48,472 nt of DNA from Desulfobacca acetoxidans (lineage in GTDB: Bacteria; Desulfobacterota; Desulfobaccia; Desulfobaccales; 0-14-0-80-60-11), in NCBI GenBank assembly GCA_020722205.1, contig DYLF01000007.1, positions 1 to 48,472 of the forward strand, written 5' to 3'. Both the position numbers and the translations under genes were made by a program. Positions 11,016 to 45,294 of this stretch are shown one piece after another. The notes below the pieces were generated by a model. That model worked only from the letters and a program-made list of their open reading frames with translations. It was not told the DNA's origin and did not search any database. The first letter of the stretch is position 1. Every line of letters starts with the position of its first letter.

Positions 11016-11453
11016 TCAACCCCTGCCCTCTCCACTCCCTGGCGCCTTGGCCGCCGCCTTCGCCCTGAACCGCGCCGCATCGATGACAAATCTCTCATGG
11101 CTGCCCTCGGAAATCACCTCCACTTCATCCTCCGCCCGCACCCCAAAGGTCAGCTTCCGCCCCTCCACCGACAAAAGCTCCACCCTGATGGTCACTCTAA
11201 GCCCCGGCGGCGTAGCCGCTATGTGGGACAGCCTAAACCCAATCCCCACCGTCTGCTCCGCCGGCCAGTCCAGATGCGGATTCACCGCCTGAATACAGGC
11301 CCATTCAATCAGCCCCACCATATACCCTGAGGCCAACACCTCCGGCATGGCTCGAAACTCCGGCGACTCCGGCAAAAGATGGGGCACCGTCCGCTGCACC
11401 GGCACCGAGTAGGTGAAGACCAAACCCAAACCTGGCTGCAGAGACTCCTTCAT
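11016..11453 (-). CDS. Fluoroacetyl-CoA thioesterase (FlK)-like hotdog thioesterase
   Basis: MPEVLASGYMVGLIEWAC, TVG, SHIAATPPG, HERF; RBS GGAGG before ATG 11453. Confidence 0.9.
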   Translation of the reverse strand: MKESLQPGLGLVFTYSVPVQRTVPHLLPESPEFRAMPEVLASGYMVGLIEWACIQAVNPHLDWPAEQTVGIGFRLSHIAATPPGLRVTIRVELLSVEGRKLTFGVRAEDEVEVISEGSHERFVIDAARFRAKAAAKAPGSGEGRG

Positions 11454-40314: not shown

Positions 40315-40627
40315 CGTAGCACTCCCCTGTTAAGATAAGGTTAGTCCAGTTGGGCCCAGAAAATCGGCCAAGACCGCCGCACATCCGCCCGATATGGTCT
40401 CTTCCCTCAAATCCAGATACCCACAGAGGGCGTTGGTGAAGAAAAGTAATCATATATTAAGATTCTACCTAATCATTTCTCATCCGGAAAGCCCCCTTTG
40501 CCGGGACTTAGGACTCGGCACGGCCTGCCGCTACCAGTGAGGACCGAGGTTTCCGGATGGGCACCAATTAAAGTCCAATATGCCATGCGGTCTTGCTGAT
40601 GGACTGTTTTGTGGTACAGTAGGGTTG

Positions 40628-41425
40628 ATGACAAAGCAGGAGAACAGAGCCCCCCAACAGGTCGGGGTGCGGCTGGAACGGCTGGCCATTGTACTTAACC
40701 GTCCGCAGTTGCCGGAAAACATCGGCGCAGTGGCAAGAGCGGCCTGCAATACCGGCATCAAGCGCCTCATATTGGTCCAGCCGGAGAGTGTGGATTGGGA
40801 GCGCATGCGCATGATGTCCACCGGCGCAGCCGCCCATCTCCTAAAAAGTATGACCATCTACGATGACCTGGCCACGGCATTAGCGCCTTTTTCCTATGTG
40901 GTCGGCACCACCGCCCGATTGGGCGGCATCCGCAAGGAAGTTTTTACCCCGCGGGACATTGCCCAACGCCTCATTGAACTCTCCCCTCACAATGATATTG
41001 CCCTTCTCTTCGGCCCGGAAAACTGGGGACTGACCAACAAGGAATTGCCTCTCTGCCATGCTCTGGTGACGATCCCCACGGCTGACTGTTCCTCGCTGAA
41101 TCTGGCACAGGCAGTAATGGTCGTTGGATATGAGATTTTCGTCGCTTCTGCGACAAATCCCCGTTTCGAACCCCGTTGGGCCAACTCCCGGGAACTGGCA
41201 TCCATGTACGCCATGCTCCAGGAGACGTTGGTGAAGATCAATTTCATCAGTCATCAGAATCCGGAATATTGGATGTTGAAGGTGCGCCGCTTGTTCAACC
41301 GCCATGGGCTCAAGGCCCAGGAGACCCAGGTGATTAAAGGTATCTGCCGCCAGATCGACTGGTACGTCAAGAAAGAGCTGGCAACGGCCAGGATGGAAAA
41401 GGCTGGCAAGGCTGCCGGGGAGTGA
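40628..41425 (+). CDS. trmJ: tRNA/rRNA 2'-O-methyltransferase, TrmJ family (SPOUT)
   Basis: ENIGAVARA, VGTTAR, FGPE..GLTN.EL, SLNLAQAV. Confidence 0.88.
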   Translation: MTKQENRAPQQVGVRLERLAIVLNRPQLPENIGAVARAACNTGIKRLILVQPESVDWERMRMMSTGAAAHLLKSMTIYDDLATALAPFSYVVGTTARLGGIRKEVFTPRDIAQRLIELSPHNDIALLFGPENWGLTNKELPLCHALVTIPTADCSSLNLAQAVMVVGYEIFVASATNPRFEPRWANSRELASMYAMLQETLVKINFISHQNPEYWMLKVRRLFNRHGLKAQETQVIKGICRQIDWYVKKELATARMEKAGKAAGE

Positions 41426-41433
41426 GCGGAAGT

Positions 41434-42261
41434 CTAAGGTTTGTAATACATCAGACCCCGGGCAAAGGGGGCCACAGCTTTTTCCAGTTGATGTTGGGCC
41501 TGAGGGGAGAGGGGCTGAAAATCCCGGGCTGCTGTCACCAGTTCCTGGACCTGGTTCACCGAATCCGCGCCGATCACCACCAGGTTCACCGGTTGGCTCA
41601 ACGCCTAGGCGATTATCTCTGCTAAAGGCGCTATCTGGAGTTGCGGTAGCAAGCCCCGGCATAAGACTTTCATGCCGATCACCCCCAAACCACGGGCGGC
41701 GGCCTCTTGGGCCAAGGGGAGGAAGCTGCGGAAGTGGGGTTCCGCCGGATTAACCGGCAACAATACGGTGTCAAACTCATCCAGCTCCAACGACCGGCGC
41801 AGGATGCCGGGATCGTGGTGACCGGTGATGCCCAGGAAGCGGGTCAATCCCTCCTCTTTGGCCCAGCGGCAAGCCGTCAGCGCTCCCTCCGGAGCGCTAA
41901 GGGCAGTCAGATCTTCCTCCGTTCTCACCTCATGAACCTGCCAGAGGTCCAGATGGTCGGTCTGCAAATTTTTCAGGCTGGCGGCCAAGTGAGCCTCGGC
42001 TGCCACTCGACTGCGGGCGTGGGACTTGCTGCTCAGGAAGATTTTATCGCGGTATCCTCTGAGGCCTGAACCCAGATAGGCTTCGCTGCCCGCCTAGGCC
42101 CGGGCTGACTCAAAATAGGTGACGCCGGCCGCCAGCGCGGCCTCTATGACCGCCTGGGCTTGGCGCTCCTGTCCGCGGCTGCGCAACGCCCCCTCACCGC
42201 CCAAACCCAAAAGCGTTACCTCCGCCCCGGTGCTTCCCAAAAGTCTCTTTTCTAAGGTCAA
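41434..42261 (-). pseudogene. Aldo/keto reductase interrupted by two in-frame TAG codons (pseudogene or readthrough)
   Basis: One frame from TTG 42261 to TAG 41436-41434 (275 codons plus stop): MTLEKRLLGSTG...GLGGEG...YFESARA*AGSE...SK...TDHLDLWQVH...GITGHH...GMK...IIA*ALSQPV...MYYKP; internal TAGs at 42096-42094 and 41607-41605. Confidence 0.9.
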
Positions 42262-42286
42262 GACGCACCACTTTCTGTGGTCGAGC

Positions 42287-43351
42287 CTATTGCGGCGAGG
42301 CCTTTTCCAGGTTGAGGAATTCTCTCAGCAGCTCCTCTTGGTGGGGGGTCAGATTGGTGGGGGTGAGAAGCGACACCTGCACCACCAGATCACCACGCTT
42401 GTGGTTACGCAGATCAGGAACGCCCTCCCCCCGCAGGCGAAAGGTGGCGCCTGACTGCGTCCCCGGCGGTATGGTCAGCGTGGTTTGGCCGTTCATGGTG
42501 GGAACCTCAATTTCCGCTCCCAGGGCGGCAGCCACAAAGGACAACTCAGCCTGATAATAGAGGTCCTTGCCCTGCCGTTTGAACAGATGATGGGGGGCTA
42601 CTCTCACTTCAACGTAAAGGTCTCCGGCCGGACCACCGAAACGGCCGGGTTCGCCCTCTCCCCGCAGGCGCAAACGGGTGCCGTTATCCATGCCCGGCGG
42701 AATGCGTACCTGGACTCGGTCTCTCTTTCTGACGGTGCCGCCCCCGCCACAGGCTCGGCAAGGGGAAGAGATATAACTGCCCGTCCCCCGGCATCTGGGA
42801 CAGGTGGTGAAAACACGGAGGATGCCACGGCTCTGGCTGACTTGACCGCGGCCACCGCATTGGGGGCAGGCTTGCCGCTGGCTACCGGGTTCCATTCCCT
42901 GACCCTGACAATGGTCGCATACTTCCCGGCGCTCGACCTCGATCTCAGTCTCCAGACCCTTAACCACTTGTTCCAGGGTGAGGGTTATCTGATACCGCAG
43001 GTCTGCACCGGGTTGCGCCTGAGGAGCCTGGCTGTGACGCCGCCCTCCAAAGCCAAAAAATTCCTCAAAAATATCCCCGAAACTGCCGAAGATATCATCG
43101 AAACCGCTGAAACCGGCGCCAAGATCCAGGCCATTCAGGCCGGCATGACCATAAAGATCATACAATTGCCTTCGTTCCGCGTCGGAGAGAACCTGATAAG
43201 CTTCTGAAATCCTTTTAAATTGCTCCTCGGCGTTCTTGTTCCCAGGATTGCGATCGGGGTGATACTTCAGGGCCAACCGCCGGTAGGCGCTCTTGATTTC
43301 CTCCTGGGAGGCTTGGCGCGGCACTCCTAGAATTTCATAATAATCAAACAT
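42287..43351 (-). CDS. dnaJ: Chaperone DnaJ
   Basis: J domain with HPD, G/F region, four CxxCxGxG motifs, C-terminal domain. Confidence 0.97.
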
Positions 43352-44189: not shown

Positions 44190-45294
44190 TTATTGCCCTT
44201 TTAACAGATAAGCCTCAATAAATCCGTCCAGCTCACCAGCCAGCACCGCGTCCACGTTGCCCTCCTCGTATTTGGTGCGGTGGTCCTTGATGAGACGGTA
44301 AGGCTGGAGAGTGTAAGAGCGGATCTGGCTGCCCCAGGCAATGTCTTTCTGGGTCTCCTGGATTTCCTGTTTTTTGACGTTCCGTTTCTGACGTTCCAGG
44401 TCATAAAGTCGGGCCCGGAGGACTTTCATGGCCAATTCCCGGTTGCGGTGCTGGGATCTTTCGCTCTGGCAGGACACCACAATACCCGTGGGCAGATGCG
44501 TCAGGCGCACCGCGGAACTGGTCTTGTTGACGTGCTGGCCGCCGGGGCCGCTGGCCCGGAAGGTATCTATTCGCAGGTCTTTCTCATTGATGTCCACCAC
44601 AATGCGGTCATCCACTTCGGGGAGAATCTGGACGGCGGCAAACGAGGTGTGGCGGCGGCCGCTGGCATCAAAGGGTGAGATGCGCACCAGGCGGTGGATG
44701 CCGCTTTCACCCTTTAGGTGGCCATAAGCATAAGGCCCGCTGGCGGTGAAAGTGACGCTTTTGAGCCCAGCCTCATCACCCGGCAAGAGGTCCAACACTT
44801 GAACTTTATAGCCCTTCTGCTCGGCATAGCGCAGGTACATGCGCAATAACATTTCCGTCCAGTCTTGGGCTTCAGTGCCACCGGCGCCGGCGTGAATGGT
44901 GACGATGGCGTTTTTCTGATCATCCTCCCCCATCATGAGGAGTTGGAGTTGCCACTCTCTCAGGGCTTTTTCCAGGCCTTTTAGATTTCGGGTGACTTCC
45001 TGGAGAGCCTCCTGTTCGTTCTCCTCCTGGGCCAGTTCCAGGAGCACTGCCAAGTCCTCGATCTCATTGTCATATTTCTGCCAGGCTTCTATAGTCTGCA
45101 GCAACTGGCGGCGCTCCTTTTGGCAGGCGGCGGCCCGGGCCGCATCTTCCCAGAAATCCACAGCCCCCATCATTTCGTCCAACTGCTGAATACGCCTCTG
45201 TTTATCCTCCAGTTCAAAGATAACCTCTGAGGGCTATCAACCGCTCGCGAAAATCATTGAGCTTGTTTTTGACTTCAGAAACGTCCTCTATCAT
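44190..45294 (-). CDS. prfB: Peptide chain release factor 2, expressed via a programmed +1 frameshift
   Basis: ORF1 from ATG 45294, MIEDVSEVKNKLNDFRERLIALRGYL, ends in CTT TGA (45219-45214); the +1 frame continues ELEDKQ... and contains SPF and GGQ. Confidence 0.97.
45213..45228 (-). promoter_or_regulatory. prfB frameshift cassette
   Basis: AGAGGT TAT CTT TGA A: internal SD-like sequence, 3-nt spacer, slippery CTT-TGA. Confidence 0.92.

Follow-up and report, generated by a model that had tools for sequence, protein, structure and literature searches.

An in-frame UAG within an otherwise open enzyme gene is the situation met in pyrrolysine decoding, and UAG codons can also be read as tyrosine, either by suppressor tRNAs of the supF type (a tRNA-Tyr with a CUA anticodon) or by near-cognate tRNAs. 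In Escherichia coli without release factor 1 (RF1), tyrosine and glutamine are the near-cognate insertions at UAG (PMC6207430). A different body of work concerns the mutations that may give rise to such codons, and here template switches by which imperfect inverted repeats become perfect are a well-established kind in E. coli (PMC7202029). Finally, ordinary nonsense pseudogenes carry stops at conserved residues of genes that are intact in relatives. Each of these systems resembles to some degree a minus-strand aldo-keto reductase (AKR) gene with two in-frame TAG codons, found in a stretch of DNA from Desulfobacca acetoxidans (GenBank assembly GCA_020722205.1, contig DYLF01000007.1, positions 1 to 48,472). 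We refer to this whole 48,472-nucleotide stretch as the window, and to the genome it belongs to as G000. The gene is very probably a recent pseudogene of a dispensable small AKR, and not the mark of an altered genetic code.

The AKR frame comprises 275 codons, runs from a TTG start (42261-42259) to a terminal TAG (41436-41434), and appears in the list of open reading frames as three pieces. Its only internal stops are the TAGs at codons 56 (site 1) and 219 (site 2), which lie 489 nt apart in an identical nine-base context, GCC TAG GCG, and it contains no frameshifts. The initial annotation had described a single frame broken by nothing but these two TAGs in one context, and this description is upheld both by our recount of the frame and by a second assembly. 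Table 1 gives the coordinates of these and the other features discussed here.

For profile searches, we translated the frame through both TAGs as X. The resulting product matches the Pfam family Aldo_ket_red (PF00248) over residues 19-206 with an E-value of 3.9e-19 (69.3 bits, cut-off 24), which agrees with the family assignment first made from the letters alone; a search of NCBIfam returned no equivalog at or above its cut-off. We found a match to the gene in 39 of 41 genomes (G000 and 40 relatives). The best 30 full-length orthologs in other genomes share 60-72% identity with it, and none of the 30 contains an internal stop. A small AKR of this kind thus appears to be widespread in Desulfobaccales-like bacteria. 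When a profile of the ortholog alignment was compared with proteins of solved structure, it matched 42 sequences, mostly AKRs and related oxidoreductases, the best being 9yeb_A (“Oxidoreductase”, 8.7e-39, positions 3-266), with 1ynp_A also among the matches.

The two interrupted positions are strongly conserved. In an alignment of the G000 copy with 11 close orthologs, both TAG columns are occupied by Tyr in 11 of 11, with the orthologs reading GCC TAY TCN GGC at site 1 and a Tyr codon followed by GCC at site 2. The same picture emerged from 80 wider relatives (36-71% identity), whose record titles include Desulfobacca, Desulfobaccales, Syntrophobacterales and Thermodesulfobacteriota metagenome-assembled genomes: all 79 sequences that extend over site 1 have Tyr there, 58 have Tyr and 22 have Phe at site 2, and an internal stop is present in none of the 80. 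Site 1 aligns to the Tyr of FDTAASY in 9yeb_A and of LDTADLY in 1ynp_A, while site 2 aligns to a Phe in the former and a Tyr in the latter. These alignments confirm that the first TAG falls on the AKR catalytic Tyr and the second on a position that is usually aromatic, both of which the initial annotation had proposed. Codon 56 of the G000 copy is TAG, and the active-site Tyr of the D/E-x-A-x-x-Y motif is therefore not encoded. The residues E51, K79 and H110, which may correspond to the remaining AKR catalytic residues (acidic, Lys and His), are invariant in the ortholog alignment. On these comparisons the family ancestry of the gene looks clear, whereas the G000 copy, which is short (275 aa) and lacks a codon for the active-site Tyr, would not be an active member as encoded.

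Could the two stops be errors in the published sequence? Among public runs, two gave only short unrelated pieces and one alone contains the stretch, a biofilm metagenome of 2014 from which the GenBank assembly was probably built. We examined the Logan contigs of that run, which are contigs and not reads, and which were built by a different assembler from that of the GenBank assembly. One of them spans positions 41000-42126 at a depth of 13.3 with no differences and reproduces both TAGs, and no alternative contig is listed at a 1% share. A G/T bubble at position 42127, formed by two 61-nt contigs with depths of 5.7 and 5.4, indicates two co-existing haplotypes. The G/T change is synonymous, with the codon counted by hand from the frame, and the two haplotypes share the contig with both TAGs. 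At site 1, moreover, three bases out of four in a row depart from every one of the 11 orthologs (TAC TCC to TAG GCG), which is more than a single miscall could produce. The second assembly excludes an artefact of the assembler, although it does not thereby exclude a systematic read error. Such an error, in which the true bases would be TAC or TAT and a motif-specific palindrome effect would have produced the G, could draw on the fact that one 9-mer stands at both sites, each time in a short palindrome beside G+C-rich runs. The depth is moreover modest (~13x), and the sole run with the stretch probably being the assembly source, its reads are not independent. Nonetheless, a second assembler recovered identical bases from this run with no alternative at a 1% share, 49 instances of GCC-TAY-GCN elsewhere in the genome show a normal reading, and three differences within four bases exceed one miscall. 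We consider a sequencing artefact, which the initial annotation had listed among its options, the least probable of the explanations weighed here. No same-species copy was found elsewhere, the best matches being 70% identical in a metagenome scan and 71% in a genome scan.

We then examined whether TAG is decoded in this genome. ARAGORN predicted 42 tRNA genes and a tmRNA in G000, among them one tRNA-Tyr (GTA) and one tRNA for selenocysteine (tRNA-SeC). None of the 42 tRNA genes in the genome bin has a CUA anticodon, and no tRNA-Tyr paralog was found in the bin. A search at relaxed thresholds gave 131 predictions, including two “cta” and two “tta” calls; the two “cta” calls were rejected on inspection by eye as coding sequence. 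The best match to PylS in the genome scored 22.3 bits where the cut-off is 178, PylS being the only protein of the pyl system that the search covered, and no credible tRNA-Pyl was found in the bin. Thus, while the locus resembles pyrrolysine decoding in that UAG interrupts an enzyme frame that is otherwise open, and in its anaerobe-type genome that uses selenocysteine, it lacks the synthetase (22 bits versus 178) and the tRNA, and the two AKR positions require Tyr.

The release factors and the use of stop codons point the same way. The RF1 gene, prfA, is intact (543 bits). The window itself also contains an RF2-like gene, a 347-residue open frame on the minus strand (44196-45227) ~2 kb from the AKR gene, which scores 300 bits against the prfA model and so falls below its cut-off. 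Among 520 conserved genes whose ends could be placed, 219 end in TGA, 196 in TAA and 105 in TAG, and the base that follows the terminal TAG (n=105) is G in 39, C in 30, A in 21 and T in 15. Because the dnaJ-like gene directly upstream ends in TAG GCT, leaving 25 nt to the start of the AKR gene, TAG followed by GC acts as an ordinary terminator here. Neither AKR TAG is followed by RNA structure beyond that of shuffled controls (z -1.08 and -0.73). If TAG had been reassigned, it would be expected to be rare as a terminator and RF1 to be lost or altered, neither of which is the case; the earlier judgement that TAG is not globally reassigned is thereby sustained. Nor did a census of in-frame stops reveal many genes with TAG at one type of residue. 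Nothing supports recoding of TAG as a sense codon.

For this census, all open frames of at least 80 residues from 2.8 of the 3.45 Mb of a single relative, G019, were compared with the G000 genome. Keeping the best-scoring frame per place left 1704 alignments with 498,730 residues, which cover 1.48 Mb (56%) of G000. An earlier version with greedy longest open reading frames was swamped by antisense shadow frames. The census yielded 35 interior stops with good flanks, most of which proved to be off-frame readings or to lie upstream of starts; a TAA at a “Y” (C106:41176) was one such off-frame reading, and the apparent stop-spanning alignments at C35:18792 and C65:1098 were adjacent genes. Within these alignments, TAG at a Tyr position occurs only in the AKR gene and in one insertion sequence (IS) family, and in no other non-mobile gene. 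Other stops included an in-frame TAA and TGA in an IS1380-like element (C42, C150) and an in-frame TGA in a small HicB-like gene (C107:30563). At C37:3555 and C131:10004, a TGA aligns to Cys of the relative at selenocysteine (Sec)-type sites in redox proteins, which are presumably HdrA-like and MvhD-like. A Sec-like TGA inside an AhpC/TSA domain (C161:398) came from the tests of TAA and TGA candidates described next. Together with a tRNA-SeC gene at C78:2-99, these Sec-type sites indicate that the genome uses selenocysteine.

We also scanned every stop in the genome for same-frame coding signal on both sides, using a Markov model; a simple codon log-odds scan was too unspecific. The Markov scan picked out 138 stops with that signal (61 TAA, 45 TGA and 32 TAG). 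Of the 32 TAG candidates, 6 are spanned by a G019 alignment, 10 lie between separate G019 genes, and 16 were passed to Pfam. The TAA and TGA candidates were limited to the 26 with no start within 8 codons after the stop, 22 of which were tested with Pfam; those left out were the low-scoring C57:298, C52:47796 and C77:13298, plus C50:20110. Because the candidates were selected differently, this control is not symmetrical with the TAG test. Among the 16 TAG candidates, a PF03601 (Cons_hypoth698) domain spans a TAG at position 11143 of a membrane-protein gene (C113:10570-11625; L158/L173), in the context CTC TAG GCC. The frame is otherwise clean and the position is Gln in 3 of 3 orthologs at 70% identity, from which it follows that in-frame TAG is not specific to Tyr. 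A TAG inside the PF03601 ortholog of the relative G026 was set aside, since it lies upstream of the start of that gene. The remaining TAG hits included stops in IS5- and IS66-type transposases. Among the 22 TAA and TGA candidates, TGA was found in a photolyase domain (C123:948), between the two domains of a GT4 glycosyltransferase (C149:27824) and in the frame of a TonB-dependent receptor (C169:34220), and two TAA cases were ambiguous. The TGA-bearing genes on C123, C149, C169 and C107 are probably further pseudogenes with a single nonsense codon each. Several genes of this genome, then, carry a single nonsense codon.

These results bear on the alternative that the AKR gene is still functional because ribosomes read UAG as Tyr often enough in this context to be of use, giving some full-length enzyme. 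The agent could be the near-cognate tRNA-Tyr (GUA), or a supF-like suppressor tRNA encoded on unbinned or mobile DNA, and the bin's incomplete tRNA set leaves room for the latter. This alternative would explain why both TAGs stand exactly at required Tyr positions in an otherwise clean frame, why they are present in both co-existing haplotypes, and why a TAG also occurs at a conserved Tyr of a two-copy IS4-like transposase. The insertions known at UAG, Tyr and Gln in the E. coli study (PMC6207430), even match the Gln position of the TAG in the PF03601 gene. However, no CUA tRNA or tRNA-Tyr paralog was found in the bin, RF1 is intact, TAG ends 20% of the conserved genes with G as its most frequent next base, and the upstream gene shows that the TAG GC context terminates. 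The 498,730 aligned residues contain no further TAG at Tyr in a non-mobile gene, no RNA structure follows either stop, the in-frame TGAs in other genes point to general gene decay, and with two leaky stops in a row the losses of yield would multiply. We regard readthrough of this kind, by either agent, as highly improbable. A fuller version, in which UAG is decoded as Tyr at a useful rate and both the AKR and the IS4-like transposase are functional but throttled by termination, we place slightly lower still.

The comparison with supF-type suppression or near-cognate reading thus extends to the position of the TAGs at Tyr, one of the two known near-cognate insertions (PMC6207430), but not to the rest of the system, as here there is no CUA tRNA in the bin, RF1 is present and TAG is an ordinary stop. 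A suppressor tRNA or recoding had been offered as one option for this locus. Beyond the missing CUA tRNA and PylS, it is disfavoured by the motif itself: in the validated frames, GCC-TAG-GCG occurs in frame at no other place, against 49 intact GCC-TAY-GCN. The combination of relatives with Tyr codons, no CUA tRNA and no similar motif cases had been named in advance as one that would speak against recoding, and its occurrence here points to a recent pseudogene.

On this reading, much the most probable one, the codons for Tyr56 in the active site and for the aromatic residue Tyr219 have been turned into TAG, and termination at codon 56 through the intact RF1 would leave a 55-residue fragment without activity. 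The gene appears dispensable in this clade, and the inactivation is probably recent, with no frameshift and few additional substitutions as yet. It would be an ordinary loss of a gene, and the genome itself is a small one (2.64 Mb, where the family mostly ranges over 2.6-4.2 Mb). That the AKR is dispensable is suggested by the ortholog in G026 (C95:17114-17623; L203), which is a pseudogene of separate origin: it aligns to the query over residues 2-33 and 134-275 only, one of its stops stands at a Lys and the other at a Gln, and Tyr219 is intact. In these respects, namely stops at conserved residues, a gene that is intact in relatives, an ortholog that decayed independently and other nonsense-bearing genes in the genome, the locus looks like an ordinary nonsense pseudogene. 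It differs from one in that both stops share GCC TAG GCG and fall on Tyr, in the lack of frameshifts, and in an overall divergence that is near normal.

How far decay has proceeded was judged from the AKR alignment alone; a dN/dS estimate is not reliable at this divergence. Leaving the stops aside, the G000 copy departs from the 11 orthologs at nine columns on which they all agree (P4E, T28S, S57A, E87A, D111E, E129T, F131C, A157S and V217I), versus 0-4 such departures for each of the others. The initial annotation had seen neither frameshift nor visible decay; the former holds, but the latter was too strong in view of these nine changes. Expressed as private residues on invariant columns, the count is 9 of 28 for G000 and 24 of 154 for the pooled orthologs (odds ratio 2.6, p = 0.058), which would be suggestive, though not decisive, of relaxed constraint. 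Identity to G019 is ordinary, at 62% in the census alignment (63% in the ortholog search) against a genome median of 64.6%, and from this ordinary divergence the inactivation would appear to be recent. Loss of function and its recency thus remain what the alignments suggest.

Several observations weigh against reading the AKR gene as an ordinary pseudogene. The tRNA list of the bin lacks tRNA-Ile and tRNA-Ala (TGC) and is thus incomplete, so that absence of a CUA tRNA from the organism is not proven, and the tRNA search covered the contigs of the bin. The signal of relaxed constraint is marginal (p = 0.058), and one of the changes behind it, S57A, is frequent among the wider relatives, 22 of 79 of which have Ala. 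The absence of frameshifts and the ordinary divergence leave little neutral time in which a second stop could have been acquired. Moreover, two copies of the IS4-like transposase have a TAG (C10:291 and C44:25550) at the conserved Tyr of ...Y-x-x-R-W-Q-I-E..., where they read ATC TAG AAA. A third copy (C153:28-282) keeps the Tyr as ATC TAC CAG, so that the step from TAC CAG to TAG AAA involves three changes in four bases, a cluster after the TAG that echoes the one at AKR site 1. Lastly, of the 73-96 one-step paths to a stop in the AKR gene only 5-9 lead from Tyr to TAG, and GCG makes up 18.8% of Ala codons. It is improbable that two independent hits would fall on two of the three GCC-TAY sites of the gene, each then followed by GCG.

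The shared context had been taken as a sign that two random nonsense mutations are unlikely. This is a fair inference, yet the window was picked from a very large scan. Two copies of GCCTAGGC in 48 kb are ordinary given the dinucleotide content (shuffle mean 1.08; at least two copies in 31 of 100 shuffles). In the actual 2.64-Mb sequence, however, there are just 12. This scarcity follows from a strong depletion of CTAG, which has 1400 sites where base composition would by our own arithmetic predict ~9900; the depletion may reflect a restriction system, a repair bias or avoidance of TAG. CCTAGG is present 85 times. With so few copies, two GCCTAGGC within one 828-nt gene are unusual, at a genome-wide probability of ~0.02 by our own arithmetic, in which the in-frame condition is not yet imposed. 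CGCCTAGGCG has a single copy in the genome, at site 2. In the validated frames (346,635 codons), GCC-TAY is intact 493 times and GCC-TAY-GCN 49 times, GCC-TAG-GCG is found only at the two AKR sites, and a third GCC TAT in the AKR gene itself, at codon 62, is intact. The GCC-TAY motif is not a general target of mutation. Of all single-base changes in the AKR gene, ~3-4% create a stop.

The identical 9-mer may be either a coincidence brought to light by a very large scan or the product of short templated mutation between pre-existing GCC-TAY sites. In the latter case, the AKR gene would still be a pseudogene, but its two TAGs would not be independent: a short templated event would have copied GCCTAGGCG from one site to the other, whether by template switch, by very short gene conversion over 489 nt or by palindrome-perfecting synthesis. 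Taking these routes together, and assuming a pseudogene, we think a templated origin unlikely but worth entertaining. A single copy from site 2 would account for all three changes at site 1 (C TCC to G GCG), and an independent double hit in one context is improbable. With the ancestral state taken from the 11 orthologs, both changes at site 2 are toward the palindrome CGCCTAGGCG, of which they create the only copy in the genome. Template switching is well established in E. coli (PMC7202029), and the IS4-like copies show a similar cluster directly after their TAG. On the other hand, identity between the two sites stops exactly at the 9-mer, leaving almost no flanking homology. The 49 other GCC-TAY-GCN and the third GCC TAT in the gene were untouched, and since synonymous sites are saturated, the change from GCC to GCG may simply be old. 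A search for a longer donor for site 1 turned up a 12-nt match on contig C35, which is within chance by our own estimate.

Templating from a hairpin, as in the quasi-palindrome template switches of E. coli lacZ reporters, faces difficulties of its own. The changes in the AKR gene do perfect inverted repeats of 8 and 10 bp, but the suggestion of such a mechanism made in the initial annotation fits imperfectly. At site 2 both changes are toward symmetry. At site 1, however, only two of the three changes are toward symmetry, and one (the last C to G) breaks perfect palindromy. The repeats are also very short and have no spacer, so that there is no stem plus loop to provide a template and the changed base, being central, could not be templated from a hairpin stem. 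In addition, the motif was not converted elsewhere in the genome.

This locus calls for caution, because stops at catalytic residues of an otherwise clean frame look like recoding. Here, normal use of TAG is indicated by the tRNA set, the release factor, stop usage, motif counts and the homology census. What remains curious is mutational: two stops share one palindromic context of nine bases, and a similar cluster comes after the TAG of an IS element. Should short templated events be behind such clusters, bacterial genes would undergo multi-base changes of a kind that standard substitution models leave out.

Table 1. Features of the AKR locus and of an IS4-like transposase family. Coordinates refer to the window unless a contig is named.
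Feature	Position	Strand	Basis or remark
Probable aldo-keto reductase pseudogene	41434..42261	-	Frame, Pfam PF00248, intact orthologs, match to 9yeb_A
In-frame TAG 1 (codon 56) at the AKR active-site Tyr; context GCC TAG GCG GGC	42094..42096	-	Ortholog alignment, Logan contig
In-frame TAG 2 (codon 219) at a conserved aromatic position; context ATC GCC TAG GCG TTG	41605..41607	-	Ortholog alignment, Logan contig
8-bp palindrome GCCTAGGC surrounding TAG 1	42092..42099	.	1 of 12 genome copies
10-bp palindrome CGCCTAGGCG surrounding TAG 2	41602..41611	.	Sole genome copy
G/T polymorphism, synonymous, Ala45 GCC/GCA	42127	.	Two bubble contigs in the source run
dnaJ-like gene upstream of the AKR gene, ending TAG GCT	42287..43351	-	Orthologs in 41/41 genomes
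Convergent downstream neighbour gene of the AKR gene	40580..41425	+	Homologs beside the AKR ortholog in 2/11 relatives' loci
IS4-like transposase copies at three contig ends	C10:60-440, C44:25401-25706, C153:28-282		Outside the window

The surroundings of the gene also differ from those in relatives. The gap between the AKR gene and the dnaJ-like gene is 25 nt in G000 (42262-42286), versus 8.6-17.4 kb on one contig in 12 relatives, so that about 10 kb beside the AKR gene seems to have been lost or moved. On the other side, homologs of the convergent downstream neighbour adjoin the AKR ortholog in L002 (68%) and L005 (76%). The flanks in the 11 loci are short, and the absence of such a homolog from the other 9 accordingly says little; where it is present, the neighbour supports the orthology of the AKR locus.

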